A stretch of DNA of 64,000 nt, taken from a candidate division FCPU426 bacterium. GTDB taxonomy: Bacteria > Oederibacteriota > Muellerivitia > Muellerivitales > Muellerivitaceae. A program made the translations under genes and the position numbers. Under the pieces are notes generated by a model. It had not been told where the DNA came from and ran no database searches. It saw only the letters and a list, made by a program, of their open reading frames with translations. The stretch is from contig CAVYSE010000003.1 of the NCBI GenBank assembly GCA_963771075.1, positions 352,001 to 416,000 on the forward strand. Direction: 5' to 3'. Within the stretch, counting starts at the first letter, position 1. Each line of letters opens with the position of its first letter. Positions 35,168-64,000 of this stretch are shown piece by piece.

Positions 35168-35169
35168 GG

Positions 35170-46110: not shown

Positions 46111-46166
46111 ATTGCTTTTGCCTTTGTGTCAAGGATGAGATTTTTAACTATTTATAAAAAGTTGAC

Positions 46167-46201
46167 CAGGACATCAAAGTCCACCGGACTTTGATGTCCT
46201 G
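46167..46201. promoter_or_regulatory. Perfect 16-bp inverted repeat between divergent genes (candidate operator or oriT hairpin)
   Basis: CAGGACATCAAAGTCC-ACC-GGACTTTGATGTCCTG. Confidence 0.65.
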
Positions 46202-46567: not shown

Positions 46568-46769
46568 AGAAAAGGACAAGAAACGCGTATTAAAGGATTT
46601 AGTAGAGCGTTTTAAGAAATTATTGCCTGATGAGAATGTTGAGGGGGACCCCTTTTGGGGGTTGATGGAAATTCGCGGAGGAAAATTAACGGGTAACTAT
46701 TATGTTATTCAGTCAGATCTACCGCACCCAAACATGGCGCTCCCTTTGTTTTTTAGAGAAACTGAGTAA
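46557..46769 (+). pseudogene. Hypothetical gene truncated by IS66
   Basis: Its stop codon (TAA) lies within the IS terminus GTAAG starting at 46766. Confidence 0.55.
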
Positions 46770-46790
46770 GCGTCCTGTCAGGCCATATGT

Positions 46791-48470: not shown

Positions 48471-48528
48471 CGCTCTTTGAGACGCACCAACCTCTCCCGA
48501 AGTTTCAAACAACTTCAAAAATTCTTCA

Positions 48529-48903
48529 TCACGCCATCACCGGTTGGGGTTTGTGCGACAGGCCCAGGCTAAACCGTTTGCGCCTCTGTACTCTCGCCAG
48601 GCTGATTCCCTCGATGAGCATCGAAAGCTCCGCCTGGCTCATCTCCACGCACGTTCCTTCACCTTGGCGCATCTCGAAGGTCCCGGCTTCCAGGCGCTTG
48701 TACCACAGGCACAACCCATCCCCGCCCCAGTACAACACCTTCAGCCGGTCCCCCCGCCGGTTGCGGAACACGAACAGGTGCCCACTCAAAGGGTCTTGCC
48801 TCATCACCTCACCGGCCAGGGCCGACAGGCCGTCAAACCCCTTGCGCATGTCCGCCGCTCTCGTACACACAAATACTCGGATGCCCGCCGAGAGGGTCAG
48901 CAC
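48529..48903 (-). CDS. tnpB: IS66 accessory protein TnpB
   Basis: DMRKGFDGL, FVFRNRRGDRLKVLYW, KRLEAG. Confidence 0.96.
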   Translation of the reverse strand: MLTLSAGIRVFVCTRAADMRKGFDGLSALAGEVMRQDPLSGHLFVFRNRRGDRLKVLYWGGDGLCLWYKRLEAGTFEMRQGEGTCVEMSQAELSMLIEGISLARVQRRKRFSLGLSHKPQPVMA

Positions 48904-49232
48904 GCCTTTTCCTCCAGGGCTCGGACCAATTCAGCCAACGCCGGGGCGGGCATTTCCCGGTACAGCCTCAAAACCCGGCCGTTCAAAAGGGTCAATTCCA
49001 CAACCGGATGGGTTTCGCCACCCGCAGTCACTACTGAAACGGGCAGGAAGGCCTGGCGACCCCGAACCACAGGGCTCTGGGGACCGGCCAACCGTCTTTT
49101 CCAGGCGTAAAAGCTTGGCGGGCTGATCCGACTTTTACGGCAATAGGCCGATCCGCTCAGGCCACTACGCTTCCAGGCCCGCAAAACCTCCTCCCACCGC
49201 TTTTTATTCCGGAATTTGCTCTGCTTCGCCAT
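48897..49232 (-). CDS. tnpA: IS66 TnpA
   Basis: W..SGLS...YC......SFYAW.RRL, FLPV. Confidence 0.9.
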   Translation of the reverse strand: MAKQSKFRNKKRWEEVLRAWKRSGLSGSAYCRKSRISPPSFYAWKRRLAGPQSPVVRGRQAFLPVSVVTAGGETHPVVELTLLNGRVLRLYREMPAPALAELVRALEEKAC

Positions 49233-49243
49233 GGTTTTCCTCC

Positions 49244-50389
49244 CTAGACAAGATTGGTCTCCATGGTGGTTTCTACGGGAGGGTGGCAGGATTGGCTAGA
49301 TGGTGCAACAAGACGCTTACCCTTCAACGCAGGATGAACAATTTTCCCCTGTTCCAGGTTAAGCGCATGTTGCAAAACCGGGTCGGCTTCCAAAGCCTTC
49401 GGATAGCCCTTATTGGCGATCTTCAAGACATAGGGCAGGGTCGAGTTGGTGAGAGCGTAGGTAGATGTCATGCCCACGGCGCCAGGGATATTGGTTACGC
49501 AATAATGAACTACCCCGTGCTTCTTATAAACCGGAGCGCTGTGGGTAGTGGGGTGGGATGTTTCCACGCATCCGCCTTGGTCGATGGCCACATCCACAAT
49601 GACCGAACCAGGTTTCATGGCTTTCACCATGGCTTCGGTGACCAGCCGGGGGGCCTTGGCACCTTCCACATATACCGCCCCGATCAACAGGTCCGCATCC
49701 GCCACTTCTTCCCTTATGACCCTCCGGTTGGAAACCAGGGTGATCACGTTTTTAGGGAGTATTTCTTCCAAATGCCGTAAACGGCTGGGGTTGATATCCA
49801 GCACCGAAACCCGGGCGCCGATACCCGCCGCCACCTTGGCCGCGTTGGTGCCCACTGCCCCGCCCCCTAAAACCACCACCTTGGCGGGCTGAACCCCGGC
49901 CACCCCGCCTAAAAGGATGCCCTTACCGCCCATGGACCTTTCCAGGTATTTGGCTCCTTCTTGGATGGCCATCTTGCCCGCCACTTCGCTCATGGGGGTT
50001 AGGAGGGGGTGTTCCCCATCGGGCAAGCAGAGGGTTTCATAGGCCAGGGCGATAATGCCCGATTTGATCAGGGCGTGGGTGAGAGCCGGTGCGGCAGCCA
50101 GGTGGAAATAGCAGAAAACCAACTGCCCTTTGCGGAGGTATCGGATTTCGGAGGGCTGGGGTTCCTTAACCTTTAGGATCATCTGGGCCTGGCGGAAAAG
50201 GCTGGCCCTTTGGGGAACGATTTGGGCACCCGAATCCCGAAATTCCTTGTCCGAAAGGCCGCTTCCGGCCCCGGCGCCCTTTTCGATGAGGACCTTGTGC
50301 CCGGCCAAGGTTAGTTCCTCCACCCCGGCGGGGACGACCCCTACCCGAAACTCGTTGTCTTTGATTTCCTTCGGAACCCCGATGATCAT
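49244..50389 (-). CDS. ald: Alanine dehydrogenase; native C-terminus replaced by IS66 read-through beyond 49320
   Basis: IGVPKEIKDNEFRV, LLTPMSEVAG, GGGAVG, DVAIDQGGC, NIPGAV..TST.ALTN. Confidence 0.93.
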   Translation of the reverse strand: MIIGVPKEIKDNEFRVGVVPAGVEELTLAGHKVLIEKGAGAGSGLSDKEFRDSGAQIVPQRASLFRQAQMILKVKEPQPSEIRYLRKGQLVFCYFHLAAAPALTHALIKSGIIALAYETLCLPDGEHPLLTPMSEVAGKMAIQEGAKYLERSMGGKGILLGGVAGVQPAKVVVLGGGAVGTNAAKVAAGIGARVSVLDINPSRLRHLEEILPKNVITLVSNRRVIREEVADADLLIGAVYVEGAKAPRLVTEAMVKAMKPGSVIVDVAIDQGGCVETSHPTTHSAPVYKKHGVVHYCVTNIPGAVGMTSTYALTNSTLPYVLKIANKGYPKALEADPVLQHALNLEQGKIVHPALKGKRLVAPSSQSCHPPVETTMETNLV

Positions 50390-50530
50390 TAACGGCCCCC
50401 TACCGGCTCATGTTTGGCTATTTGATTGTAATCTTTATTCGCGACTCTGCGAAATATAGCCTGATGGACCCTCCCCCAAAACGGTAAATTTGAGAGACAC
50501 CTAAACAATCGGTACAAATCGATTTATACC

Positions 50531-50814
50531 GGTATTTATCCGGTATTTTCATGGTATTAGCCCGGTATGAATGGCGGTATTTACGGTATAAGCCCGGTAT
50601 TTGCTAGGTATTAATGGTAGTATGAATGGTATTAGCAGCGGTACAAATGGTATTTGTCCGGTATGAACCCGGTATAAATGCGGTATGAGTCGGTATTAGT
50701 GGTTGTATAAACGGTATTAGCCCCGGTATGAACGGTATGAGCTCGGTATTAATGGCGGTACAAATGGTATTAGCGACGGTATAAATGGTATTTGTACGGT
50801 ATGAATGGTTGTAC
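50531..50814. repeat. Helically phased GGTAY motif array (~27 copies, mean period ~10.7 bp)
   Basis: Motif starts at 50531,542,553,564,576,585,596,607,619,628,640,649,660,671,682,692,704,713,725,734,745,757,766,778,787,798,810 (three are degenerate at base 1). Confidence 0.85.
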
Positions 50815-50876
50815 GGACCAGTTGATTCGGTACACGGGATGTATACGGCCAGTTTGGCCCTGTATACACCCTCGGA

Positions 50877-51569
50877 TTAGCTTCTGTGGTGGCGCCCACC
50901 GTGTTTACCGCCAGGTGTCGGGCTGGGGCTAGGCTTGGCAACCGGCTGGGTAACCACTTCCTCGGTGCCGGTTTTCATCAAATCATCTCCCATAAACCCA
51001 TTAGCATCGCAAACGTGATAGTGCCCATCTTCTAAATAGACTTGGACCGTCGGGGTCTTACCTGAACCCTGCCACCACCAATAACCCCGGTTGAAATAAA
51101 GCCACCGCTCGGCAGTGGGGTCATGCCACCAAAAACGACCCTCCCGCCAGAGCACCCAATGAAAGGTGTCACCCATGCGCCAGCCATACCAATTCCGGTC
51201 CCCATCACGGTAATGGCAGTAGTTCCACGCATTGTAGGGATGCCAATAATACTTTCCCGAATGGCTGTCTTTCTGATCGATCTTGGGAACTTGCTGAACG
51301 GCGGCGGGTTCGCCCAGATTGCGCATAGACGGGCCAAGGGGCGCTGACTCTTCGTCATTGACCAGCTTCAGGGAGGTGCCATCGTTGTATTTCTTGGGGG
51401 GCTTGGGCAACCGAAAATGCGTGTTATCAGCAATCTTGTCTTGAGTCGATAGAACCAGGGGTTTGGGTAACGATGGCGTAGCTTCCACCCCAGGTAGTTG
51501 GTCGGAAGCGAAAACAATAGTTCCTATTCCCAAAAACAACATCCCCATCAATATTCGCCACACGTACAT
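50877..51569 (-). CDS. Secreted hypothetical protein with Trp/Tyr-rich repeats
   Basis: Signal peptide; YYWH, WYGW, FWW, YWWW motifs. Confidence 0.75.
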   Translation of the reverse strand: MYVWRILMGMLFLGIGTIVFASDQLPGVEATPSLPKPLVLSTQDKIADNTHFRLPKPPKKYNDGTSLKLVNDEESAPLGPSMRNLGEPAAVQQVPKIDQKDSHSGKYYWHPYNAWNYCHYRDGDRNWYGWRMGDTFHWVLWREGRFWWHDPTAERWLYFNRGYWWWQGSGKTPTVQVYLEDGHYHVCDANGFMGDDLMKTGTEEVVTQPVAKPSPSPTPGGKHGGRHHRS

Positions 51570-51677
51570 ATTTTGCCTTTATTCGGATTGTCATCTAGAC
51601 GTCCTGCAACAAGGAAAGGGTTGGGCCAAAGGGCCAAAACAAGACCCGTAAAAGGAGTATGGCACGTCTAGACACCC

Positions 51678-53836
51678 ATGAATACACCATCATCCCAAGC
51701 AACCACAGTTCAACCAATAAACCCGAAAATCGCGCCTTCCCCGAGTCGGGGGGAATGGGTGGCGTTTACCATCATCCTGCTGTTGGGCGCGGCCCTGCGC
51801 CTCTGGGATCTGGATAAGAACGGAACGGGCAACCCCTATTACGCCTCGGCCGTTCGAAGCATGCTGATGAACTGGCACAATTTCTTTTTTGTGTCCTTCG
51901 ATCCCGTAGGATTCGTGACGGTGGACAAGCCCCCGGTGTCGCTGTGGATTCAAACCGCCTTCGCCAAACTTTTCGGCTACCGGGGTTTTACCCTGATCTT
52001 TCCCCAGGTGCTGGAAGGCTTGGGCACCCTCTCCGTGGTTTATTACCTGGTTCGCAAGCGCTTCGGCGCGTTCGCCGCCTTGTTCGCGGGTCTGGTCATC
52101 GCCCTTTCCCCGGTCAGCGTGGCGGTGGACCGCTACAACAATACGGACGAGTGCCTGGTATTCGTTATGGTGCTCGCGGCCTGGGCCTTGATTCGGGCGG
52201 CTGAAACCGGAAGCCGAAAGTTTCTCTACCTAGCCCTGATATTGGTCGGGATCGGATTCAACACCAAGATGATGGCGGCCTTCGTGGCTCTTCCTGTTTT
52301 CTATCTGGTTTACCTGATTGGTTCCCCCATCACTTGGCTCCGGAAAATCTGGGTCCTCGTAACCGGAACTCTGATATTGCTGGTCGTGGCCTTGTCCTGG
52401 CCATTGGCAGTGGATTTGACACCTCCCGAACAACGCCCCTTCGTGGGAAGCACACAAGATAATTCCATGATTAGCCTGTCCCTGGGATGGAACGGATTTC
52501 AAAGACTGCTCACCCGTGGACGGCGCGGTTCCCCCCCAATGGCCGGGGAGGCAATTTCCCGGCGGCTGGCGCCGCGACCAACACCCCGCCCAACGCACCC
52601 GCCTCGGTGGGCGACACGAACCATTCGGAAGCCGCAGCCGCGTCCCAGGCCCAGGCACGCCGCCGAAACGGCGGACCCATGAACAACGGAACCCCGGGTC
52701 CCCTTCGTTTGGCGGATCGGAACATGGCAGGCCAGGTGGGTTGGTTTTTTCCCCTGGTCCTGCTGGGTTTCTGGTCGGCGGCCCGCCGAATCCGTTTGAC
52801 CTTTCCCCTGGCCCCAAGCCACCAGTCCCTCTTTTTTTGGTTGGGATGGATCTTCATCTACGGGGCAGTTTTCAGTTTCATGAAGGGGGCCATGCATCCC
52901 TATTACCTTGTCCTCATGGTTCCCGCCATCGCCGCCCTGGCGGGGATCGGCGTTCAATCGCTTTGGAACGACTACCGGGAAGGCCGAATCATCCTTCCGC
53001 TCCTGACCCTAGCTCTCACAGCTGGGTGGCAGGCCTTTATCGTGACCCAGTACCCCGATTGGAAACATCAGCTTTTGCCCATCCTGATGAGCGGGTTACT
53101 TTTATCCCTGGCCAGTCTTTTGTTGATTTCCCGTCTGGCCTCTCAAAAGCCCGCCTGGCTCCGATGGGCTCCCTCAGCCTTTGGCCTGGGGCTCTCGGCC
53201 CTTTTCTTCTGCCCCACCTTTTGGGCACTGACCCCGGTCTTGGGTTCGGGCCAATCGGTGCAAGCCGGTCCTGAGTTACTGGACCCTCGCAGCAGGGGCG
53301 GATTGTTTCCAGGGTTCGGCGTGAACTTAAACAATGCCAAGCTGGTCGATTACCTGAAAGCCCACCAGCAGGGCGAATCCTATCTTTTGGTCGCGCAAAA
53401 CAGTCAGGTCGTTGCTCCAATCATCATTGAGACCGGCGAGCCGGTGGTGGCCATCGGGGGGTTCATGGGCGGGGATCCCATTTTGACCGCCAACCAATTC
53501 GCCCAGAAGGTTCAAGACGGCCAATTCCGCTACATGCTTTTAAACGCCCCGCCTACGAACCAGAACGGCAGGGGCCCAGGAGGAAACCCCGGAGGATGGG
53601 GTGGACCGGGAAACATGGGAAGGATGGGCGGGGCCCAGGCCGAGATCGCCAAGTGGGTGCGGGAGCATGGAAAACTCGTGGATGCCGCCCTTTGGAAACC
53701 AGCTCTTCCACCGGTAATTCCCGTCGTTCAATCCCCCGCCCCCGGAGGGTTCGGCGGGCGTAGGGGAGGCATTGCCAACCTGCAACTGTATGATTTGCGT
53801 CCGGGCAAAGAGGAAAATAAAGGTTCAAAGGGTTAA
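51678..53836 (+). pseudogene. ArnT/PMT-like (GT-C) glycosyltransferase, frameshifted at the C7 run near 52531
   Basis: N-half GNPYYA, VTVDKPP, FNTKM, GWNG..RL; C-half PGPLRL, HPYY, IGGFMGGDP in another frame. Confidence 0.8.
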
Positions 53837-53845
53837 GTTAATCCA

Positions 53846-55210
53846 GTGAGTTCCAACAATCTTTTACCCCAAACAACTTTGGTATTGGATGTCGGGGAAA
53901 ACCTGGATTTCCTGCTCGCCAAACTGAATCAAGTTAATTTGGGAAATAAGCCTTCCTTCGGGCAAATACTGTTGGCTTCTCCCCCTGGACAAAAAACAAA
54001 GATTTTTGCCAAACTCCCGGAAAGCTTTAAACACCTCGAAATAGTGGAAATTCAATCGCTTCGGCTAGACCTCTTCCCTTTCCTCCATAAACCCTATCTG
54101 GCCTATTTGCCATCCGACGCCCCCTATTCACCGCCTCAAATTGATTTTGGCGCGGACCTGGAGAAGCATCCTCTTTTTATCCAACCTTGGGTTCCTTTTT
54201 TAAAAACCTCGGATTCGGAGTGGGCACGCGGGGTTTACCTGTCATTGGGTTGGATTTCCACACCCAAGCTTTTGCAGAAAATGGACTTAATAAACGGGTT
54301 CTCTCTTCGCGACCTGGAAAGATCCATCCGAAACGCCCACACGGAAATTCCCTACTTTTCCGCCTCGGCTAGCGAATCCCTCAACGGAAAACCACCCGTT
54401 CCGCAGGGCCAGCCAACACTCACAAAAGCATCCAGGGTCTTAGCCCTCGTGCCCCACTTCAATTGCGAGGAGTGGCTGGAACAATGTTTGTATTCTCTCG
54501 TCCATCAAACCCGCCTACCCGAAAACATCGTCGTTATGGACGATTGTTCAACGCATTCACCGCTAGAAATCGTAAAAAAATTTCCCTCTGTGGCTCTGTT
54601 TCGTTCACCTGAAAATGTGGGCCCCTATCGACTTTTACAATCCATGATTGATCAAACCCAATTCGACGGTTATATGTTTCAAGACTCGGACGATTGGTCG
54701 AGCCTCGATCGATTAGAATTATTGCTCCGGGAAGCGGAAACCGGATGCGCCGACTGGGTGGGTTCGCAAGAGATCGTCTATTTCTCGGATGCCATTCACA
54801 CCCTTCGATATCCCCTGATTCTAAAGGATTCCCCCGAATCGCTCATGCGCTATCCGTTTTGTTACTCGAGCAGTCTCATTTCAAGGTCGTTTTTCAAACT
54901 TTTGGGTGGTTTCGCTTCGGGCCTGCGTTTCAGCGGGGACTTTGAATTTTTTTCCCGGGCAATATTCGCGGGAAAAGTGATCAATCTCGACCGTTATTGC
55001 TATCACCGGAGAGTCCGGAAAGACTCACTCATTACATCCGAAGAAACAGGGCTCGCAAGCCTTTCACGCAAGGAAGTCGATTCTCAAATCGAGGTAAAAA
55101 AAGCGGCCAATCACGTCCTTAGGTCAAAAGGTTTTGCCCCCCTGCTGGAACCGATCAAGACAGCCCCGCCCATTCGCTTTCAGCATTTGACCGGGCCCCA
55201 ATTGATCTAG
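53846..55210 (+). CDS. Glycosyltransferase family 2
   Basis: LVPHFNCEEWL, VMDDCS, FQDSDD, SGDFEF. Confidence 0.85.
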   Translation: MSSNNLLPQTTLVLDVGENLDFLLAKLNQVNLGNKPSFGQILLASPPGQKTKIFAKLPESFKHLEIVEIQSLRLDLFPFLHKPYLAYLPSDAPYSPPQIDFGADLEKHPLFIQPWVPFLKTSDSEWARGVYLSLGWISTPKLLQKMDLINGFSLRDLERSIRNAHTEIPYFSASASESLNGKPPVPQGQPTLTKASRVLALVPHFNCEEWLEQCLYSLVHQTRLPENIVVMDDCSTHSPLEIVKKFPSVALFRSPENVGPYRLLQSMIDQTQFDGYMFQDSDDWSSLDRLELLLREAETGCADWVGSQEIVYFSDAIHTLRYPLILKDSPESLMRYPFCYSSSLISRSFFKLLGGFASGLRFSGDFEFFSRAIFAGKVINLDRYCYHRRVRKDSLITSEETGLASLSRKEVDSQIEVKKAANHVLRSKGFAPLLEPIKTAPPIRFQHLTGPQLI

Positions 55211-55257
55211 TCTTCCAGCCTCATTAAAAACATGTTCGCTTGAAGCACCTATTCTTT

Positions 55258-56361
55258 TTATCTGGCATGCCGGTTTCGAAATCCGTCCATGAACTCCAAA
55301 AGTTGGTTTACGTCTTCCTCCGTTACCGAGTTATAGAGGGATGCCCTTAACCCGCCCAGGGATCGATGCCCTTCCAGACCATAAAAACCGGCTCGGGAAG
55401 CTTCTTCCAGGAACGTCTTATCCATCTCGGGACTCGGCAGGCGAAAAACCACATTCATCTTCGACCGGTCTTTCTTTGCGCCATGGACACGGAAGAAATC
55501 GGGATGCCGGTCAAGAAGATCATAGAGAGACTGGGCTTTTTTCTCGTTCAAAGCCGCCATTTTCTCCAAACCCCCGATACGGTCTTTTAACCAGCGGGCA
55601 ACCAGCAGGGTGACATAAATCGCGAAAACAGGCGGGGTGTTGTAAATGGACCCCATTTTCACATGGTTGCGGTAATCGAGCATGCTGGGCAAGGAATCCG
55701 GGGAACCCTTTAAGAGGTCCTCGTGGAGGATCACTAGTGTCATCCCCGCGGGCCCCAGGTTTTTTTGGGCATGGGCGTAAACGAGGCTGAAGTCGCGAAT
55801 TTCGAAGGGATAACTTAAAAAGTCGGAGGACATGTCGCAAACGCGCGGAACGCTCTTGGCCCCGGGCAAATAGTGAAACTGCAGGCCTTCAACCGTTTCA
55901 TTGGAAACGTAGTGGAAATAAGCGGCCTGGGGGTCGTAGGCAAGCTCTTTTTCTTCCGGCAGGCGGGTATAACCGCTTCCCTCGCCGTCAAAGATCACCC
56001 GTACCGGGCCCTCCAGGCGCGCATCGGGGATGGACTTGGCGCTCCAGTAACCCGTCTTCAGGTACTCGGCGGTCTTTCCTTTTCCCCGCAGAAGCAGCAT
56101 GGGGATCATGGAAAACTGGAGGGTGCTTCCCCCTTGGAGCTGAAGCACCTGGTAGTCGGGAGGAATATTGAGGAGGGACCGGAAGACCGCTTCCGATTCA
56201 TTGAGAATGGCCTTGAAATAGTCCGAACGGTGGCTGATACCCAGGATGGACTGGCTGGTTCCAGGGGCCTGAAGGATAGCCTCGCTGGCTTGTTCCAGCA
56301 CCGCCCGGGGAAGCGCGCCGGGGCCGCCCGAAAAATTGAGACTTGTGTGACTGGCCATCAT
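55258..56361 (-). CDS. serC: Phosphoserine aminotransferase
   Basis: NFSGGP, ISHRS, QGG..LQF, NETVEG, DMSSD, AQKNLGPAG, NTPP, GHRSLGGLRASLYN. Confidence 0.96.
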   Translation of the reverse strand: MMASHTSLNFSGGPGALPRAVLEQASEAILQAPGTSQSILGISHRSDYFKAILNESEAVFRSLLNIPPDYQVLQLQGGSTLQFSMIPMLLLRGKGKTAEYLKTGYWSAKSIPDARLEGPVRVIFDGEGSGYTRLPEEKELAYDPQAAYFHYVSNETVEGLQFHYLPGAKSVPRVCDMSSDFLSYPFEIRDFSLVYAHAQKNLGPAGMTLVILHEDLLKGSPDSLPSMLDYRNHVKMGSIYNTPPVFAIYVTLLVARWLKDRIGGLEKMAALNEKKAQSLYDLLDRHPDFFRVHGAKKDRSKMNVVFRLPSPEMDKTFLEEASRAGFYGLEGHRSLGGLRASLYNSVTEEDVNQLLEFMDGFRNRHAR

Positions 56362-57371
56362 GGCACCCCTATCTTTTTTTTCTTGGAAGCCTCCAGGACA
56401 TCTTCCAGCAGTTTGCGACTAAACCGGCCGTCACGAAATGGAAAAAGAGTGGCATTGGGGGTGAAGGTGAACTCGCTGAAATAGACCCCGTCGGGCAAAT
56501 CGTACAGATCCACCCGAACGAAATCGAAGGGGCCGGAAAGTTCGGAAGCTATTTGGAGCATCTCCCCCCAATGGGCGGGTTTTTCGGGCAAAGGATCGGG
56601 CAAGGGGAACTGGTTCGGGATCGGGATGTGACGGTGGTCCGGCACGTTGAAGAGGGCCTGGCGGTGGTCGGCGAAGCGCCCCTCGTCGTACTGGCAAAAA
56701 AGTACCTTTCCTCGGGATGAATAGAAACGGAAATCGGGCGGGGGGTGGTACCACAGGCCGTCTTTTCCGGAAGGGATGGGGGAAGGCAGGCACTCTTCCA
56801 CCAGGATCTTGGGACGCAAACCCCGATACTGTCCCTCGTATTCGTTCCGGAAGTAATCGCGACGGGCGAAGCGGAACATTTCGAGTGTCGGTTGAACGAC
56901 GACTTGGACGTTCGCCCCGCCCAGGAAAATCACTCCTCCCGAGGTATGGGTCGGCTTGGCCACCGCGTTTTTCCCGACGAAAGGATAGATGAACTTTCCC
57001 ACCTGCTCCAGGGGGGTGTCAGGATAGAGGGTCAGCACCGAGAGGGTGCGGGCGATTTGAATCCTCGGAGAGAGGGAAACCGCAATGAGCTTGGCGCTTT
57101 CTTTGTCGACGCAAGTCTTTTCAAATGGGGTCCAAGGGCCGGTCATACGTTGGAAGATATAATCTTCGAAGGTGGCCTGGGCCGAGAAGGGGTCGATCGG
57201 CAGTCTTTGGTGCTTTCGTTTGAAATTCGAGCGGGCCAAGAGGCGAGTGGCTCCCGGGTCACCCCGAAGGGCAAAAAACAACAAAACCCGCTGGACCCAT
57301 CGTTTCAAATTGAAAATCCGTTCATCTGGATATGGAGATTTTTTTATTACCTTCCACAGGATTAGACGCAC
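56358..57371 (-). CDS. TupA-like ATP-grasp protein
   Basis: DK, KPTHTSG, PKILVEE, FDFVRVDLY, YFSEFTFTP. Confidence 0.88.
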   Translation of the reverse strand: MRLILWKVIKKSPYPDERIFNLKRWVQRVLLFFALRGDPGATRLLARSNFKRKHQRLPIDPFSAQATFEDYIFQRMTGPWTPFEKTCVDKESAKLIAVSLSPRIQIARTLSVLTLYPDTPLEQVGKFIYPFVGKNAVAKPTHTSGGVIFLGGANVQVVVQPTLEMFRFARRDYFRNEYEGQYRGLRPKILVEECLPSPIPSGKDGLWYHPPPDFRFYSSRGKVLFCQYDEGRFADHRQALFNVPDHRHIPIPNQFPLPDPLPEKPAHWGEMLQIASELSGPFDFVRVDLYDLPDGVYFSEFTFTPNATLFPFRDGRFSRKLLEDVLEASKKKKIGVP

Positions 57372-57400
57372 GACTTAGAAAAGGGTGCCACCCTGACGGT

Positions 57401-58117
57401 TTATTCCACGATCTCGAATTTTCCAATAACCTGTTCTTCAGTCAGCGCGTCATAGTGCCACCATTCGTGGCGCAACTGGCGAAAACCCGCGCCCACCATG
57501 GCGCTTCTTAAGATCATCCGATGGTCGATTTGGATCTGAGTCAACTTCCCTTCTTTTAAAAGCCGGCTTTCCAGTTGAGGTTCGGAAAGAGGAGTGAAAC
57601 CGTCAAAAGGAGCGCCCATGTCGACTAATTTTCCCTGGGGGTCCAGAAGCCCGATATCCAGGGCGAAACCATAGTTATGCATGGAACCCTTGTCCGGATC
57701 GGCGACATATTTTTGATGGGACGTTCCCTTGACCACGGCCCACAGTTTTCGTTGGACCGAACGGGGCCGTAGCGCGTCAAACACGATGAACTTGTAGCCC
57801 GGGTTGTTTTTACGGAGAGTCTCAATGGCCTTACGCAACTTTTCGGCCGTAATTTTATGAATGTAGCATTTGTTGTAGGGCCCGTAGAGGTTCTTGCGGG
57901 TGAAATTGTCGGTGGTTCCATACTTAAGATTCACGGTCACGCCTTGCCAATGGGTGATCTCGACGAAATTCGGGCTGGCGGCCAGGTTTTTCATGGAATC
58001 CTCGATGGAGTGGGTTTGGGATAGGGCCGATAGCGGGAGCAGAAAAAAGCCGAACAGCAGGAAAAGGCCCAGGGAACGTTTCTTCAAGGGATCACGTCCC
58101 GGGACCTGGCATTTCAA
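57401..58117 (-). CDS. ddpX: D-Ala-D-Ala dipeptidase (M15D, VanX/DdpX family)
   Basis: YGT.DNF, FDALRP, SMHNYG.ALD, DMGAPFD, EWWHY. Confidence 0.9.
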   Translation of the reverse strand: MKCQVPGRDPLKKRSLGLFLLFGFFLLPLSALSQTHSIEDSMKNLAASPNFVEITHWQGVTVNLKYGTTDNFTRKNLYGPYNKCYIHKITAEKLRKAIETLRKNNPGYKFIVFDALRPRSVQRKLWAVVKGTSHQKYVADPDKGSMHNYGFALDIGLLDPQGKLVDMGAPFDGFTPLSEPQLESRLLKEGKLTQIQIDHRMILRSAMVGAGFRQLRHEWWHYDALTEEQVIGKFEIVE

Positions 58118-58608
58118 GACTTCTTCTTGGGCATCTCATCTTCTTTGCCTTTTTCCGGTGTCGTATAGAGGCCGTTTTCGTATTTGAGGATCGTCGTGTT
58201 CTTGGGAACGTTGTGGTATTCGAGGTTGATGTCCTCATCCGTGAGCGTCACCTCGTAATAATAGTCCAGCTTCTTGTTGAACCCCAAAATCAGCTTGCGA
58301 ATAAAGGTGAAGTCCTCCTTCACCGCGTCCGCGTCCTCCAAGCTCCCGATCAAGGTAACATCCAGCGTTTCCTCGTCCGGGTTATAAATGATGGTAACCC
58401 GAATCGGCTCGATTTTTGAATTAGGATATTTTGTCTGGGGCTTCAACAGCATGGCCTGGGTGGTCGCCGTCACCATGGTCTGGAGATAACCGGCCACCCT
58501 TTCCCCCACGGGAACGCTGTCCCAGGCCCCCAAATTTTCATTCGCGGCTTGGCAGGTCACGGCCCATAGGAGGGTCCCTAAAATAATGCAGGATTGAATG
58601 AGTCTCAT
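58114..58608 (-). CDS. Secreted hypothetical protein
   Basis: Signal peptide; overlaps both neighbours. Confidence 0.75.
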   Translation of the reverse strand: MRLIQSCIILGTLLWAVTCQAANENLGAWDSVPVGERVAGYLQTMVTATTQAMLLKPQTKYPNSKIEPIRVTIIYNPDEETLDVTLIGSLEDADAVKEDFTFIRKLILGFNKKLDYYYEVTLTDEDINLEYHNVPKNTTILKYENGLYTTPEKGKEDEMPKKKS

Positions 58609-58874
58609 GGAGTTTTGATCGGTTCCGAGACAGGCGTTGGGCTCGTTTCAGGTTCGGGAGTTTTGGCGGATTCTTCCGAAATAACCTTTCCCTCTTTTAA
58701 ACGCAAAACAATTTTTCCCGTTTTGGTGTTGAGATAGGCCAGCGAAAGATCGTTTTCTTTCAATTCGATCCCGTAATCATGGTTGATCTTTTTCCCCATG
58801 GAAAGCAGGGTCCTCTGGATCTTTTCCAGTAGGGCCTGGACGTATTTGGAATCACCCTGGTTTCCGATCACGGA
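58605..58874 (-). pseudogene. 3' half of a paralogue of 58114-58608, 5' half removed at the first 37-bp repeat
   Basis: SVIGNQGD...KKINHDYGIELKENDLSLAYLN aligns with TLIGSLED...KKLDYYYEVTLTDEDINLEYHN; homology stops at 58874. Confidence 0.75.
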
Positions 58875-58928
58875 GTTGCACACCATCCTTTTTGGGAGGG
58901 CCATGTGCAGGCAAAAATTACATGATTG

Positions 58929-59039
58929 TCAACCTTTTAACAAAGCCAATTGATATATTTTATCCCGGACTTTCCAACAGACTTTCTCCCGGACTTTCCA
59001 CCAGACTTTCCCCCAGACTTTATCTCGAATGTTTTTCAT
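58929..59039 (-). CDS. 36-aa phage-like ORF with KV(W/R/C)x tetrapeptide repeats (spacer 1)
   Basis: MKNIRDKVWGKVWWKVREKVCWKVRDKIYQLALLKG; ATGA overlap with upstream ORF. Confidence 0.55.
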   Translation of the reverse strand: MKNIRDKVWGKVWWKVREKVCWKVRDKIYQLALLKG

Positions 59040-59188
59040 TGTATTTTATCTCGAATATCAACTATTATTATGCGCCCTATTGGAAGCCAAAGATTAGATG
59101 CACAATCAAAACCAGCCTGGGAACGTGTTGTTTTTACCACAAATTTTGCCCATGCGTCAAAACAAAGTTTATGCAAAATATTATTCAT
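59036..59188 (-). CDS. 50-aa hypothetical ORF (spacer 1)
   Basis: Start overlaps the end of 59181-59705; stop overlaps next start. Confidence 0.5.
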   Translation of the reverse strand: MNNILHKLCFDAWAKFVVKTTRSQAGFDCASNLWLPIGRIIIVDIRDKIQ

Positions 59189-59705
59189 CTTCGAAAGCCA
59201 ATTCTTTCCGAGATTGCGCCACATTCTTGCTTTCAAGGTAATTGCTTATAAGGAATCCAGTTGCGAGGTCTGTGAAAATATTAGCCTTATCCCCCAGAAT
59301 GGTGTCTGTTACTTCCATCCCTATTAAAGAATACAGAAGCATAGACCAAAATCCATATTTCTTGGCGCAAGGCTTAGGCGTGAACCACCCTTTTCTTTTC
59401 AAAAACATGTCTACGGTGATGTGTAATTGATTCTTGTATTTGGAATGTTTTTTATAGAGACTTTGCTTGATATGCCTCCAATCACCAGCATTATCAAGAC
59501 TTTCTGTGTTCCAAGTCTCATTTTTCTCAATTTCTCCACTTAAGGCATAGTTTTCAAGGATATCGTAGAAAAAACGGTTTATTGGCCCGTTAAACATGAT
59601 TTTTTTAGTGTAATAGTTTTTCATGATAACGTGAGTATAGAATTTTTTGGTGAGAGAGGACATACCTTCTTTGGTAAGGTCGAAGTCTTCAAGTGTTGGT
59701 GCCAT
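59181..59705 (-). CDS. AT-rich hypothetical protein (spacer 1)
   Basis: 174 aa, strong AAGGAGG RBS. Confidence 0.7.
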   Translation of the reverse strand: MAPTLEDFDLTKEGMSSLTKKFYTHVIMKNYYTKKIMFNGPINRFFYDILENYALSGEIEKNETWNTESLDNAGDWRHIKQSLYKKHSKYKNQLHITVDMFLKRKGWFTPKPCAKKYGFWSMLLYSLIGMEVTDTILGDKANIFTDLATGFLISNYLESKNVAQSRKELAFEDE

Positions 59706-59847
59706 TGCTAATGCCTCCTTAAGTTTTCAAGTAAACGCAGTGTCCGAAAGTAAAGCGAGAATATGTGTTCTTTATTCTTATTCACTTTATCACGTATCCT
59801 GCAAAAATACGTTGCACACCATCCTTTTTGGGAGGGCCATGTGCAGG

Positions 59848-60105
59848 CTTAAATCAGTGGGATGGGGTGCTGTGAGCGGGGTTCTGAGTCACTACGGTGG
59901 AAAACTGTTCGATAAATATTTGAAGAATCCGTTAAGCTCCGCTGGAAGAACTTTGGGGAGAGAATTTAACACTGGGACGACAGCCGTTGAAAAACGGGCA
60001 TTTACCATTGGAGCTAAAAAAGCTGTGGCGGAAACGGGACACGAAGTGGGGGGAGCTTTAATTTCGTCTGCGCCATCCCTTTTGGATAAAACACCCAAAA
60101 AATAA
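59848..60105 (+). pseudogene. C-terminal gene fragment resembling an Rhs/polymorphic toxin tip (spacer 2)
   Basis: Gly/Ala-rich VGWGAVSGVLS...; begins at the repeat edge without its own start. Confidence 0.45.
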
Positions 60106-60201
60106 ACCGACGAATCCATGAGCTGCAACCACGCCGAACGTGGGTAATTGAAAGTTGGTTTCATTCTTGAAAAGTGTGAATCATGGTTGAGGGAGGGGAA
60201 A

Positions 60202-60600
60202 ATGATATTTTTAAAATATGCCATTGTAGTTTTGGTTGCCTTGGCGGTGAGCGCGGCCGAATTTGGTTTGTTCTATGTGCAGGGATTGGCTCAAAGAAGA
60301 AAGAATGCTATTTATAGAAGACTAATGATCGTAGTACTTGGTTTAGGATCCTGGGCCGGACTTATGTTGGGTGCTCCTATTTGCGATTTTTTGGGGATTC
60401 AAGATTCGAATAGCAGGCTTTATTTTTTTTGTTTTTGGTCGGTGCCAGTGCTGCTTGGAATGGGTTTTGGAGCGTACTACGTTTTGTGTGTCATGAAGCC
60501 ATTTGCACATCGTGGATTGTGTCATGAATGTGGATTTGTGAATGAGAAGGAAGTCAGGGTTTGCGGGAGATGTGGGCATAAGATGCCTAAAGAAAAATAG
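60202..60600 (+). CDS. Small 3-TM membrane protein with C-terminal zinc ribbon (spacer 2)
   Basis: GGAGG RBS; CHECG...CGRCG. Confidence 0.7.
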   Translation: MIFLKYAIVVLVALAVSAAEFGLFYVQGLAQRRKNAIYRRLMIVVLGLGSWAGLMLGAPICDFLGIQDSNSRLYFFCFWSVPVLLGMGFGAYYVLCVMKPFAHRGLCHECGFVNEKEVRVCGRCGHKMPKEK

Positions 60601-60648
60601 GAACTCTTATGGTTGCACACCATCCTTTTTGGGAGGGCCATGTGCAGG

Positions 60649-61207
60649 TTCCAAATCGCCGAACTGGTTGAAGCAAAACAGGGGATGGTAACAGGTACAG
60701 CCAAAGTAACCGTTGTACAAGGAACCTTCCTGATCCCCGTAGGTCTCGCTCACTGAGCTATCCATGTCGAGGATGATCTGTTGTATGGGCTTTTTCTCAT
60801 GGACTCCATCGATCCATTGGCCCGATAAGTCAATTAAGCCGGTCAAATTCTTCGACTGGGTGAGGACCTCCGTCTCGAAACGACCCATCTGGCTGGTGGA
60901 GGCGGCCTGTTTTTCCCTGGCCCGTCCTCCGATCACATGCCGCATCGCAGGATCGACACTCAGGCGTTCTGCGTCGTTGGTATCCTCATAACCGGCCAAG
61001 CGGCTGAATACCGACTGGCGAAGAAGCGCCGTCATCGTGTGTTGCGTATTCTTACCGGTCCGCCGATCCCAAAGGATGTTTTCTGTTCTGTCAGTCAAAC
61101 CAAAAGCTTCGTCGAGTTCGCGATAGGGAATCAACCCGCCATCGGAAGTGACCTTCGCACCATGGAACTCCAACTTGAGGCCAGGATCAAAAACCACCCG
61201 AAGAGCG
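60649..61207 (-). pseudogene. Internal fragment of an IS1380-family transposase (spacer 3)
   Basis: ALRVVFDPGLKLEFHGAKVTSDGGL..YRELD, LLRQSVFSRLAGYEDTNDAERL..DP, LDMDSS.SETYGDQEG..YNGYF.CTCYHPLF; cut by a repeat at both ends. Confidence 0.88.
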
Positions 61208-61244
61208 GTTGCACACCATCCTTTTTGGGAGGGCCATGTGCAGG

Positions 61245-61348
61245 AAAATTCTTTCGATATCCTTAAATTCGTGCGTATACCCAAAATCACCAAGATGGTA
61301 AACACTATCACCCTTCTTGACCATTTTATTCCAATTTTCTATTAAAAG
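61245..61348 (-). pseudogene. Internal fragment of a calcineurin-like phosphoesterase (spacer 4)
   Basis: LLIENWNKMVKKGDSVYHLGDF motif. Confidence 0.75.
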
Positions 61349-61520
61349 GTTGCACACCATCCTTTTTGGGAGGGCCATGTGCAGGGCAGGCATTCCAGCG
61401 TCGCCGTCTGGCACTCCTGCAATGTGCCCAAGCTCGTCGAGGTGCTCGACTCTTTCAGGTACACCGGCGCGTTGGTGGTGTTGCACACCATCCTTTTTGC
61501 GACAGGCATGTGCAGGATCA

Positions 61521-61928
61521 TCATTTCGAGGCTATCAATCGACTCGAAAAGCAACCAACGATATATATAACAGCGGCTATTAGTAGGGAGGTAGTAAGAA
61601 AAATTTTAAAAAAAGTAAAACTTTCAGGATCATTGAACCCCTGCGAAGAAATAAGCAAACAATATAAAAAGTAACTCAAACATTGAACAATCACAGCGAA
61701 GCAAACAACGGTCATTAACCCCACAAAAAAATGAATGTTTTTTCCAAAAATTAATTTTTGAAGGAGTGGATACGACAACCCTTCAAAAAAACATAAACCA
61801 TACATGAAATTTTCAGTGAGAAAGATTGTCGAGAAGAAATTTCTACCAAAGCAATATGCCAAGCTAACAAGTATGCAAAAAGAACCAAGAAAAAAAACGT
61901 TAAATAAAATCAATTTGCTCGTTCTCAT
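61521..61928 (-). CDS. AT-rich multi-TM membrane protein, immunity-like (spacer 6)
   Basis: 135 aa hydrophobic ORF; ATGA overlap with the upstream fragment. Confidence 0.6.
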   Translation of the reverse strand: MRTSKLILFNVFFLGSFCILVSLAYCFGRNFFSTIFLTENFMYGLCFFEGLSYPLLQKLIFGKNIHFFVGLMTVVCFAVIVQCLSYFLYCLLISSQGFNDPESFTFFKIFLTTSLLIAAVIYIVGCFSSRLIASK

Positions 61929-62198
61929 TGATCAACATGAGGCGTAATTGCCGTCCCTTTGTTATCATTCGTGAAATTCTTATACTGTTCGTTCGGATTG
62001 GTATAAGGACCTTTAACCCCATATAGCGATCCAAGCGGTGGTTGCGCTGACTGAGGGAAAGTAGCTGACACCTGTCCCGCATTAGCAATTTTGCCAGCTA
62101 GATCAGCACAATTTTCCGAAGTACATCCACCATTTTTATCGGTTTGCGCGCTCACACTGTAAGGCTTATTAAAATTTTTATTACCGAACGACTTCATT
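61925..62198 (-). pseudogene. C-terminal gene fragment resembling an Rhs toxin tip (spacer 6)
   Basis: PYS...NCADLA..IA.AG...PN..Y pattern; begins at the repeat edge. Confidence 0.45.
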
Positions 62199-62235
62199 GT
62201 TGCACACCATCCTTTTTGGGAGGGCCATGTGCAGG

Positions 62236-62451
62236 CCATTGGTTCAACTGGGTGATTTATTCTTACTGCCTCCAATTACTACCACGGATTGGACATATTC
62301 CTTTCTAACGAATTCAGGGGGTGATTGTTTCCTAGATGCTTGTTCAGGAAACTCTAGTTTTCCTGTAGTCGTGAGGGTTTGGAAAAATGGGACCGTCGTA
62401 GAATCAGCATCGAATACCATTTGTGCCGATATTAACGGGACCCTGCCTTAA
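62236..62451 (+). pseudogene. C-terminal fragment of a beta-rich secreted protein
   Basis: WTYSF...G...L.A.....V.V.VWKNG.VVES; begins at the last repeat. Confidence 0.45.
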
Positions 62452-62457
62452 ACCCAC

Positions 62458-62661
62458 CTAAAGCCTTTCACCAACCAATTTTTTCATTTTAAGGGAGTAT
62501 TCCAGGCGGAGGGTTTCCAGCTGGGCCTCGTTTAGCCTGGTCGTGTCGTCGAGGAGGTTTGCTTGGTTCTTATAATTGGCAAGGTCTTCCCCGACGGCTT
62601 TAAGGATAAGGGCGGTCTTGGCGTTATGGATGGCGGAACGCCAAAAGGGGAAGTCTTTCAT
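62458..62661 (-). CDS. Hypothetical 67-aa protein
   Basis: Start abuts the stop of the upstream gene. Confidence 0.4.
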   Translation of the reverse strand: MKDFPFWRSAIHNAKTALILKAVGEDLANYKNQANLLDDTTRLNEAQLETLRLEYSLKMKKLVGERL

Positions 62662-64000
62662 TTATTCGATTTTAAGTTCCGAAAATAACTCGCATATTTT
62701 CTCAACCGCCATTATTACCTGATCAAACCGCCGGTCGGCGTCTTCAATCAATGACCCCTCAGGCGTATTCCAAGAACCGTGCGCCTTTCCTTGGCCTCTT
62801 CGATCTTGGAGATCACTTAAGACTCCGTGAGTTTCGGGCAAACTCTGTTCGTTACCGGTTGTTTTGATGATGAACTTCAATAAGCCAAGCGACCTAAGTT
62901 TCTCATCTTTGTTGCCAAGGTGACCGGCAATTTCTTTAAGCGCCGGTGTTTGCAAACCCTCATTTACGGTATTCGCAAGTGCAATTATAAAATCATGCCA
63001 TTGATTTTGGTTTTCAGTTAATAGATAAAATAGACCCTTTGAGGCCGTCTCCCAACTACCTCCCTTGGGGGACCAAATTGGCCACATATCATCTCGTAGT
63101 TTAATACTACCTAACTTCTCCAAACTATTTTTCAACTTGCTTAACTTAGGTTCTTCATTTGGGAATCGAGCTTCGAAATCTGTTTGGATTGCTCTTTTAG
63201 AAATTCCACCATTGGGTTTTTCATTATATTGTTTCCAATGTAACTGTTCCTTGAAGGGCAATCGACTCAGATAAATTGCATATGTATGTACCTGTTTGTA
63301 CTCGTTAATATCAAATGATTGAAGTTCCCAACCGCCACGGCAGGATATTCTTCGCTCATATAACTCATATTTGTCTGGGTTGCCTTTATATTTGTCTAAT
63401 ACCTCGGCATTAAAAAAGATGGGACTGGTTTCGAATGGCAACGGGCTCTCGGTGAAATAATTCGCAAAGTTGGCCGGGTCGATCGAATAATCTTCGAGGA
63501 TTCTTTTGTTTTTCCAATCATAAACAATAAAAGAAACATACTTTTTAGTTCCCTCTTCTTCGTCAAGAAAAGACCAAGAAAGTAATTCCTTTTTGGGAGT
63601 TATTGGATTTGTGATTTGAACTCCTCTGAACTCGGAGTATTCAATTTTACCGTTTCCGCTGGTACGAATTTCGAAACGTCCTTGAAATTCCGGGGGCTCA
63701 ACCACTTTTGTTTTGCTCTCCAAAATCGGCGGAGATTCACCTAGCCATTTGTTAAAATCAAAATATCGGACTAAAACCCACTTACCCAGATGAAGAAGTT
63801 TGTCGAGTGTTCGCCTTCTTATCAAGACAAGTTCAACCACATCAGTATTGATCAGCTTTATTTTTTCAACCTCTTCGCCCATACGATTCACAGAGCAATA
63901 AGAGGTTTTGCTTGGGGACCAATGGAGACCAAGAGGGTGAGTCACAAGCTGATTGAACTCAATATAGTTCTCTTTTCCCTTGGGGTGGCCGTGGTAAAAA
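62662..64000 (-). CDS. Large AT-rich hypothetical protein, 5' end beyond window, C-terminal RX4-6H (HEPN-like) motif
   Basis: Frame is open to the window edge (FYHGHPKGKENYIEFNQLVTHP...); SP.FF..EVL.KY, YL..LP..EQ.HW..YN, LQDRRGQGKAH. Confidence 0.75.
   Translation of the reverse strand, partial: FYHGHPKGKENYIEFNQLVTHPLGLHWSPSKTSYCSVNRMGEEVEKIKLINTDVVELVLIRRRTLDKLLHLGKWVLVRYFDFNKWLGESPPILESKTKVVEPPEFQGRFEIRTSGNGKIEYSEFRGVQITNPITPKKELLSWSFLDEEEGTKKYVSFIVYDWKNKRILEDYSIDPANFANYFTESPLPFETSPIFFNAEVLDKYKGNPDKYELYERRISCRGGWELQSFDINEYKQVHTYAIYLSRLPFKEQLHWKQYNEKPNGGISKRAIQTDFEARFPNEEPKLSKLKNSLEKLGSIKLRDDMWPIWSPKGGSWETASKGLFYLLTENQNQWHDFIIALANTVNEGLQTPALKEIAGHLGNKDEKLRSLGLLKFIIKTTGNEQSLPETHGVLSDLQDRRGQGKAHGSWNTPEGSLIEDADRRFDQVIMAVEKICELFSELKIE

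Follow-up and report, generated by a model that had tools for sequence, protein, structure and literature searches.

What kind of activity places copies of one 37-bp repeat between unrelated pieces of DNA of very different lengths? The array that raises this question lies near the right end of the window, i.e. the whole stretch of 64,000 nucleotides analysed here. According to the evidence below, it was very probably built by a Cas1-Cas2 integrase which has no effector and works without a fixed insert length.

The repeat array and its surroundings

The window array possesses seven co-oriented copies of the repeat, six of them identical and all with sharp edges (Table 1). Exact-match mapping bears out the preliminary description on these points, with 0 matches in 100 shuffles of the sequence, and likewise its insert sizes and their lack of mutual similarity (none above the cut-offs used). 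The strand has to be reversed: in its biological sense the repeat is read as the reverse complement, CCTGCA...TGCAAC, with the leader side to the right. No leader and no cas gene is found beyond the leader-side end repeat. As DNA, the + strand of the repeat has a folding energy of -8 kcal/mol (z -2.4, 3/200 shuffles equally good), and the inner stem is lost in the variant copy. A conserved RNA hairpin was considered and rejected, pairing and covariation not exceeding those of shuffles (62/500 and 71/500, respectively).

Table 1. Coordinates of the array and of neighbouring features in the window
Feature	Position	Strand	Remarks
Integrative conjugative element-like region	31213..46664	-	tyrosine integrase, TraG/VirB4-type ATPase, TrbL/VirB6
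IS66 copy	46766..49320	-	second IS66 copy 8 kb right of window
Chromosome-like block	49321..58874	.	99.9% shared with G014; in G001 a 7,247-bp repeat-bounded spacer
Truncated small gene	58608..58874	-	cut by first repeat; first 38 residues of G001 ortholog missing
37-bp repeat	58875..58911	-	exact copy; leader-distal (oldest) array end; cuts into small gene
Insert, 899 bp, 37% GC	58912..59810	.	complete 174-aa ORF 59181-59705 (-), no Pfam match
37-bp repeat	59811..59847	-	exact copy
Insert, 764 bp	59848..60611	+	ORF tail and complete 150-aa hydrophobic ORF 60148-60600, weak zinc-ribbon match
37-bp repeat	60612..60648	-	exact copy
Insert, 559 bp	60649..61207	-	internal DDE_Tnp_1_4 transposase gene fragment, Pfam E 4e-51
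37-bp repeat	61208..61244	-	exact copy
Insert, 104 bp, 32% GC	61245..61348	.	gene fragment; no Pfam match
37-bp repeat	61349..61385	-	exact copy
Insert, 94 bp, 63% GC	61386..61479	.	
Variant repeat, 4 mismatches	61480..61516	-	same variant after leader in G014
Insert, 682 bp	61517..62198	-	ORF tail and complete 135-aa hydrophobic ORF 61521-61928
37-bp repeat	62199..62235	-	exact copy; leader-side array end
Low-GC, IS- and defence-gene-rich stretch	62236..64000 (start)	.	continues to contig end

To the left, the truncated small gene is 59% identical to its G001 ortholog from ortholog residue 39 onwards. The block that contains it was probably acquired from a relative: a second, syntenic copy of the block's 164-aa gene is present in the window's genome on contig C3 at 21.9 kb, the block is nearly identical in G014, and the 7,247-bp spacer of G001 matches the window at 99.96%. 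The conjugative element-like region has a counterpart in G014 at 81-93% identity, and its tyrosine integrase, the nearest one, lies 27 kb from the array. A composite IS66 transposon as carrier of the array was rejected: the two copies lack a shared target duplication, which gives no support to arrival by simple cut and paste, and IS-driven rearrangement is possible. The low-GC stretch to the right is possibly one long insert, its closing repeat lost or left unassembled. Joining the window contig to a leader-bearing contig was discarded as ambiguous, the contig end sitting in a repeated IS. Contig C14 of G014 was also dismissed as a mis-binned piece of the window's genome: of its 103 kb, no more than 11.7 kb and some mobile pieces match above 95%. 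No tRNA target site was found in the window, Pfam returns no family for most insert ORFs, and an Rfam scan of 57500-64000 gives no match up to E 1.

The cas1-cas2 module

The repeat had been described from a single locus; a genome-wide search returns 30 copies in 13 sequence variants, on other contigs too. Their only recurrent flank is a leader with cas2 (6/30). On contig C1, an intact cas1-cas2 pair without an adjoining effector is followed, after 22 bp, by one copy, which differs by one base from the main variant of the window. The preliminary description had postulated an integrase that captures long, variable fragments between fixed sites, and had proposed to seek the enzyme around other repeat copies; this pair very likely is that enzyme. 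It had set Cas1-Cas2 aside because CRISPR spacers are short and uniform, and Cas1-Cas2 is now the best-supported author of the array. The main variant of the window is absent from all leader-bearing copies of the genome; the window array was therefore not seeded by the C1 module in its assembled form.

Cas1 matches Pfam Cas_Cas1 (E 1e-66) and TIGR00287 over cut-off, and its residues E162, H222, D234 and E237, which we take to be the catalytic ones, are invariant in 9/9 sequences. Class 1-like subtype models score best and none reaches its subtype cut-off; the nearest are Cas4g/1g, I-D and I-C, and the nearest solved structures 4n06 and 7cr6. The earlier comparison with type VI-B/II-C repeats is not borne out by this affinity, nor by five genomes in which no Cas9 exceeds the cut-off. 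Directly downstream of cas1 follows cas2, with a weak Pfam match below cut-off (E 0.006) and a predicted fold whose top structural matches are solved Cas2 proteins (E 1.6e-5). The Cas2 homodimer model scores 0.60 against 0.00 for the best control, with contacts agreeing at 84% or more and pLDDT of at least 71; the score mark is reached by 20/30 solved pairs and 1/23 single chains, and, as Cas2 dimers are already solved, the predictor may owe this pass to known structures. The dN/dS ratios (cas1 0.06; cas2 0.29 and 0.09) indicate that both genes are under purifying selection. The leader, 22 bp between cas2 and repeat, measures 11 bp in the related locus L058. In loci of the G004, G014 and G045 type the cas module has a sharp border some 100 bp upstream of cas1, at a palindromic site of 30 bp, which implies that another system does move the module. 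The genome also carries a type I-E system with its own 29-nt repeat.

Distribution among relatives

Cas1 of the C1 type occurs in 5 of 31 family genomes, all five with 10-28 repeats, and in none of the 22 repeat-free ones. It is missing from four of the nine repeat-carrying genomes, among them G003 (99% complete, 3 repeats) and G002 (90% complete, 13 repeats). The hallmark of an adaptation module, a leader and repeat beside cas1-cas2, is present on C1; among 28 related loci it is seen in 23, where a 37-nt repeat of the same family directly follows cas2. The majority of the related loci have one repeat only; six of the 23 possess further downstream copies at gaps of 140-4,007 bp, none of them regular. 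In G045, 11 repeats follow one another from a leader across 53 kb, and a single-chromosome record has all of its 8 copies beside cas1-cas2. Patescibacteria relatives of Cas1 show the same layout of genes and repeat; the window's genome adds a host from outside the CPR. The plasmid collection holds distant Cas1s only (11 records below 60% identity, best 32-33%), and viral contigs contain neither a Cas1 relative nor an exact repeat pattern.

Inserts, donors and insert ends

The 51 spacers of the family span 30 bp to 14 kb, with a median of 1,271 bp. The short uniform spacers of CRISPR-Cas are not found: just 2/51 are up to 50 bp long (30-38 bp). Gaps of extreme length, e.g. 45.7 kb on C8, hold later IS insertions and need not be single captures. 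Exact donors reveal that several inserts were cut from inside resident IS elements, from chromosomes of relatives and from cas1 itself. The 559-bp insert, whose transposase we presume to be of the IS1380 type, has its donors in the same genome (100% to C8:57024-57582, 99.8% to C12:29657-30215); captured fragments, formerly all considered foreign, thus include at least one from a resident IS. Parts of other window inserts recur in public runs, namely a 190-bp piece of the 899-bp insert in X6 and pieces of the 764-bp insert in X1 and X3, all 100% identical. For the 682-bp insert, record 31 of X8 supplies a donor context, identical over 61850-62198 and diverging thereafter. As the variant repeat stands behind a leader in G014, the window copy was probably imported from the array of another lineage; possibly the 94-bp insert, this repeat and the 682-bp insert were captured together as one piece.

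Insert ends are internal to genes or IS elements, without IS ends and without a common sequence, and the two flanks of a repeat derive from different donors. What the ends do have in common is a depletion of G at the third base inward, found at 9/178 ends (proximal 7/99, p 2.5e-5; distal 2/79, p 2.8e-6). The depletion is strand-specific (C is not depleted, 38/178), alike at both ends, and seen in each genome; held-out ends have G at this position in 1/32 against a background of 25.6% (p 9e-4). It is absent from the type I-E spacers of the host. The same strand-specific bias at both ends points to a symmetric, two-ended integrase.

A proposed mechanism and its rivals

Following the chemistry of CRISPR adaptation, a Cas1 site would grip each 3' end of a linear fragment, preferably an A/T-rich end in which C is avoided at the third base from the 3' end, while the DNA between the two held ends would loop out. 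At the leader-proximal repeat, each fragment end would then attack one of the two borders, and the repeat would be duplicated through repair by the host. Captured pieces containing leader or repeat could give rise to new sites, and arrays would subsequently be broken and moved by IS activity and conjugative elements; together these steps would explain a leaderless array like that of the window. Within this explanation the likeliest role, at about even odds, is that of a self-propagating, sequence-blind gene-capture module which builds variable islands rather than an immune memory. Many of the captured pieces are broken genes, and this speaks against an advantage for the host.

The preliminary description had left immune memory and a fragment-collecting element side by side. 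Under the first, the same Cas1-Cas2 would capture the inserts, and the arrays would serve an unrecognised effector, perhaps a Cas13 or a full-length Cas12, or act against invaders through transcripts or recombination. We regard this as unlikely, although the repeat is of CRISPR type, the cas1-cas2 pair is conserved under purifying selection, and many inserts are low-GC, mobile-element-like DNA. The cas1-cas2 loci read contain no effector gene, and in G004 (99% complete) and G041, where the C1-type cas1 is the sole cas1, no RAMP, Cas3, Cas9 or Cas12f-type domain exceeds the cut-off. Self-matching inserts are tolerated, no PAM emerges as a common motif from the small sample of 7 proximal and 6 distal donor flanks, the inner stem of the repeat is neither conserved nor covarying (62/500 shuffles being as well paired), and neither phage records, also in distant blastn with the array, nor viral contigs match.

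That ordinary short-spacer arrays were blown apart, the long gaps being scars, is very improbable. The two spacers of 30-38 bp, the location in IS-rich islands and the leaderless, degenerate repeat copies would fit such decay, yet the repeats are otherwise intact and identical and no run of regular spacers occurs in 28 loci or nine genomes. Inserts that were excised from within genes or IS elements and lack IS ends also speak against it, and random rearrangement would not give a symmetric end bias.

Equally improbable is that the repeat is the recombination site or element end of another enzyme (a tyrosine or serine recombinase, or an HUH transposase) with cas1-cas2 as a passenger. The movement of the cas module by another system at the palindromic site and the integrase and IS66 near the window array are in its favour. 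Against it, repeat sequence and Cas1 clade go together even in distant hosts, with the repeat always adjoining cas2; the seven Patescibacteria-type loci read have no further conserved gene next to it, and insert ends carry no donor site. The earlier concern that the repeat might be the end of a MITE or IS is answered by its flanks, which differ on both sides.

Least probable is an artefact, by chimeric joins at a short repeat or by a library linker, as the preliminary description had cautioned. The genomes are metagenome-assembled, no junction is common to two of them, and the assembled contigs of four public runs (contigs only, covering 7-16 of 30 bins and none holding half the stretch) do not span a repeat junction; runs X3 and X6 match the window up to 58875 and have different letters beyond. 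RNA runs contain 10-12% of the stretch's words; such small shares say nothing about habitat or expression. The window array could have its inserts assembled in the wrong order, but 13 repeat variants in one genome, divergent clade-specific repeats beside cas1-cas2 in independent assemblies, including the single-chromosome record, and an end bias reproduced in held-out genomes make a linker or chimeric origin unlikely.

Comparison with known systems

With CRISPR adaptation modules, the effector-less Cas1-Cas2 integrase shares a Cas1 with intact active-site residues and a partner of Cas2 fold, a repeat (37 bp, with inverted ends) that is duplicated around each insert, and polarity from the cas2-proximal side. 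It differs in the length of its inserts, from 30 bp to more than 10 kb where about 30-45 bp is usual, in the lack of a PAM and of an effector at the locus, in a leader of only 22 bp, and in a Cas2 without the acidic motif usual in strand 1. Integrons and pdif-type cassette arrays also hold accessory DNA between repeated sites (attC, pdif) in variable islands; here, however, the sites are identical, no tyrosine recombinase is linked, and the inserts, which bring no site with them, face both ways and frequently consist of broken genes. Unlike IS ends, MITEs or REPs, the repeat has no constant element body beside it, and its flanks do not rejoin into an intact locus.

Casposons resemble the system in using a Cas1-family enzyme that joins both ends of long DNA to a specific site with target duplication; as described in PMC6977970, casposases do without Cas2, act on terminal inverted repeats of their own and produce a duplication of about 14 bp. 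The present system includes Cas2 and duplicates a 37-bp unit, and its inserts have no defined ends, no terminal inverted repeats and, at the loci read, no PolB-type polymerase gene. A survey of isolated cas loci describes cas1-cas2 acting in trans on remote arrays; its available part requires at least three cas genes per locus, treats ordinary arrays and describes no kilobase spacers (PMC5294841). In vitro, type II-A Cas1-Cas2 without Cas9 integrates untrimmed substrates, as stated in the accessible part of PMC8034620. No description of kilobase-capturing, effector-less Cas1-Cas2 arrays was found in the literature. To our knowledge, Cas1-Cas2 is held to insert only short pieces of fixed length in cells.

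Implications

A wider reading, which we hold only tentatively and give slightly less than an even chance, is that of CRISPR-derived, sequence-blind capture. Cas1-Cas2 would take both ends of almost any linear DNA, even beyond 10 kb, and paste it site-specifically into the repeat, spreading by capture of its own leader and repeat and by riding mobile systems. It would thereby provide a route of chromosomal gene flow between genera and, in function, stand midway between the transposition of casposons and CRISPR adaptation. Such arrays would escape standard CRISPR finders. The locus yields pairs of donor and insert and a rule of end preference, which can guide the choice of substrates. If the explanation is true, spacer length, the relation of casposons to adaptation and adaptation without immunity become directly testable, and the two proteins would be a candidate tool for inserting or recording large DNA at a specific site.

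Repeat copies in the window and the genome

The preliminary description placed seven repeats in the window, which is confirmed (see the table), as are the gaps of 899, 764, 559, 104, 94 and 682 bp between them. Six copies are identical (no matches in 100 shuffles), and the one at 61480 has 4 mismatches to the main repeat. The orientation proposed there has to be reversed: in the window's own genome (G000) a copy on contig C1 lies 22 bp past the stop codon of cas2, and the biological orientation is therefore the reverse complement. G000 (4.39 Mb, 28 contigs) possesses 29 repeat copies within 9 mismatches, besides one copy within which contig C13 begins. Copies are clustered in the same orientation, i.e. 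seven on C8, four on C27 and two on C1. Both flanks differ between all copies, with the exception of an identical following sequence in 6 of the 30. Five copies retain the leader and 52-224 bp reaching into the final part of cas2, where other DNA interrupts the sequence; three of them share a similar short motif past the break, also present after the leader in G002, another genome of the host family. The minus strand of the repeat provides an ATG and an open frame, predicted to fuse in frame to truncated genes. Opposite-oriented copies about 100-150 bp apart occur in two cases.

Within the repeat, the inverted ends and one central motif are conserved, and the inner stem shows no covariation. 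The repeat therefore appears better suited as a DNA target site than as a crRNA hairpin.

Coordinates of features in the window, in G000 and in extracted loci (L-numbers)
Feature	Location	Remarks
Conjugative element-like region	window 31213-46664	tyrosine integrase, TraG-type ATPase, TrbL/VirB6; 81-93% identical to G014:C13
IS66 and 9.2 kb of chromosome-like genes	window 46763-58499	most of the 9.5-kb block; 99.9% identical to G014:C14:82567-94304
Degenerate 10-11-bp repeats, ~300 bp	window 50510-50813	one G001-spacer end and one G045 junction within or matching the stretch
Counterpart of G001 spacer	window 50693-57939	99.96% identical; no flanking repeats
Predicted in-frame fusions	window 58605-58904, 60607-61311, others	
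Repeat array	window 58875-62235	copies starting at 58875, 59811, 60612, 61208, 61349, 61480 and 62199; minus strand
Tandem short 12-bp units	window 58959-59018	within the 899-bp insert
Exact match of a contig of sequencing run X8	window 61850-62198	other letters follow at the repeat border
Leader-bearing truncated copies	G000 C1:183014, C3:1584, C12:19157, C13:1, C27:32687	
Opposite-oriented copies	L038:6252 / 6433; L124:4723 / 4869	
885-bp insert of G045	L124:3838-4722	
971-bp insert of G004	L028:6850-7820	
Palindromic module start	L052-L055 at 9899; L045 at about 1400	
Defence-like island right of the window	L001:4662-19238, L002	AbiTii, SRAP, SPFH pair, STAND NTPase, several IS

The cas1-cas2 module

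The repeat is linked to cas1 and cas2. On C1 of G000 the shared sequence behind it leads to these two genes on the opposite strand, which have as neighbours a divergent glutamate synthase gene and a 3.5-kb insert starting within a dnaX gene that is 74% identical to the host's own dnaX. Cas1 (336 aa) matches Pfam (E 1e-66) and TIGR00287 over cut-off, and none of the Cas1 subtype models over cut-off. The Cas2 candidate (111 aa) matches Pfam Cas2 below threshold; the best matches of its predicted structure (pLDDT 75) are solved Cas2 proteins. A Cas2 homodimer model scores 0.60 vs 0.00 for the best control (contacts agree to at least 84%, pLDDT at least 71). The mark it passes is attained by 20 of 30 solved pairs and by 1 of 23 single chains, and likeness to solved Cas2 dimers may account for the pass. 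Values of dN/dS are 0.06 (cas1) and 0.29 and 0.09 (cas2), with one cas2 pair saturated.

In some loci (see the table) the module has a sharp start at a palindromic site of 30 bp, located about 100 bp upstream of cas1; it does not start there in G000 C1 and G001. Judging from this start, the module seems to be moved as a cassette by another array system, unrelated to its own.

No effector gene is present at the C1 locus, and the type I-E system of G000 has a separate 29-nt repeat with regular spacers. A search for RAMP, Cas12f-type domain, Cas9 and Cas3 gave no match over cut-off in G041 and G004 (the latter 99% complete, in 5 contigs), two genomes whose sole cas1 is of the C1 type. The ordinary CRISPR systems of G001, G002 and G014 possess their own repeats and regular spacers. 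Locus L116 (G014:C6), with cas1 in a 614-aa frame adjoining a 1,314-aa frame (weak Cas12f-type domain match) and a regular 14-repeat array, is probably an ordinary type V system. According to membership tests the effector-less module belongs to neither CRISPR immunity, casposons nor integrons; its parts are parts of CRISPR adaptation.

Insert sizes and donors

The 51 spacers of the host family range from 30 to 14,100 bp (median 1,271 bp), in a count that omits one gap of 45.7 kb on C8 and another of 8.3 kb with the cas module inside; 2 are at most 50 bp long and 29 exceed 1 kb. Donors are cut within genes, and matches to the own genome are tolerated: the 559-bp insert of the window corresponds to part of the interior of a transposase gene found whole elsewhere in G000 (C8 100%, C12 99.8%). 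A repeat-bounded 7,247-bp spacer of G001 matches a stretch of the window end to end, and for a 379-bp spacer of G002 there is a 100% match on C12 of G000. In L056 a piece begins within cas1 and includes cas2 as well as the leader, so that here the module has captured itself. One donor stretch is overlapped by three inserts with differing ends in G045, and the 885-bp insert of this genome is an inverted, 100% identical sub-piece of the 971-bp insert of G004, sitting exactly 43 bp inside each of its ends. No PAM is visible in 7 proximal and 6 distal donor flanks. A small gene has lost its first 38 residues to the repeat at 58875, and contigs of the public sequencing runs X3 and X6 match up to this position and then diverge at the repeat border.

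Base bias at insert ends

Ends were read inward from the junctions, excluding leader-bearing flanks and duplicates. Position 3 is a G in 7 of 99 leader-proximal ends (p 2.5e-5) and 2 of 79 distal ends (p 2.8e-6), pooled 9 of 178 (p 2e-10), against a background of ~22%. Among 60 positions G falls below 15% at this one alone. The depletion is seen in every genome of the set, and C is not depleted there (38/178). Insert positions 3-7 are A/T-rich. Held-out ends from G045 and G042 have G at position 3 in 1 of 32 vs a background of 25.6% (p 9e-4). A small Patescibacteria set, with 3 of 26, shows no clear depletion, and the depletion is absent from the host's type I-E spacers. On the joined strand, C is thus disfavoured three bases from each 3' end. 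Since the two ends show an equal, strand-specific bias, it fits a two-fold symmetric enzyme gripping both of them; random rearrangement and chimeric assembly are both at odds with it.

Distribution and phylogeny

C1-type Cas1 is found in 5 and the repeat in 9 of the 31 genomes of the host family. All five Cas1-bearing genomes contain 10-28 repeat copies each; C1-type Cas1 is missing from all 22 genomes without the repeat. Four genomes carry the repeat without it, namely G002 (13 copies, 90% complete), G003 (3 copies, 99%), G018 and G042 (2 copies each, 89%), and speak against a tight link of both. The repeat is absent from the 16 genomes of other families.

Relatives of Cas1 (62-71% identity) occur in records titled Patescibacteria, Taylorbacteria, Saccharibacteria or uncultured bacterium, furthermore in metagenomes. 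A same-family 37-nt repeat lies behind cas2 in 23 of 28 loci examined out of 33; the other five comprise one of insufficient length and four that the script overlooked, two of these with repeat-like sequence by eye. Six related loci have further downstream copies, all irregular. The single-chromosome record behind L058 contains exactly 8 copies, every one of them next to cas1-cas2 and 140-4,007 bp from the next. In G045, 11 repeats extend over 53 kb, beginning behind a cas1-cas2 whose cas1 has an internal stop; three gaps are near 12 kb. In a quick, midpoint-rooted tree these Cas1s form a single branch (33 rows, SH-aLRT 100), separate from the ordinary Cas1s of the hosts, and those of the host family are nested among Patescibacteria-type ones, suggesting a possible transfer from Patescibacteria.

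Surroundings of the window array

Left of the array lie the conjugative element-like region, IS66 and a 9.5-kb chromosome-like block, one gene of which has a second, syntenic copy elsewhere in G000. The segment of IS66 and block is shared by two genera, with right ends cut inside different genes. A simple IS66 composite transposon as carrier of the array is not supported. Right of the array, 25.6 kb of low-GC, IS-rich DNA extend up to the contig end inside a repeated IS. The window lacks tRNA genes. None of the leader-bearing copies of G000 has the main repeat variant of the window, but such copies are present in G001 and G002; most likely, therefore, the window array was once part of a longer one, with its leader lost, unassembled or in another lineage.

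Proposed mechanism and significance

Following the established chemistry of adaptation, both ends of the captured DNA would be integrated at the leader-proximal repeat, its middle would loop out and repair would duplicate the repeat. In PMC8034620, type II-A Cas1-Cas2 alone integrates unprocessed substrates in vitro, a precedent for lost length control without trimming partners. Casposases are Cas1-family enzymes that can join a long DNA by both its ends, and a preference for short pieces has been proposed as an effect of Cas2 (both PMC6977970).

A full-text search of largely open-access literature found no description of an effector-less cas1-cas2 with kilobase spacers, and a prior description is possible. 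New at this locus are a non-CPR host of 4.4 Mb in which 30 copies are dispersed, arrays that lack a leader, self-capture, donor-insert pairs reaching 7.2 kb and an end rule that proved reproducible.
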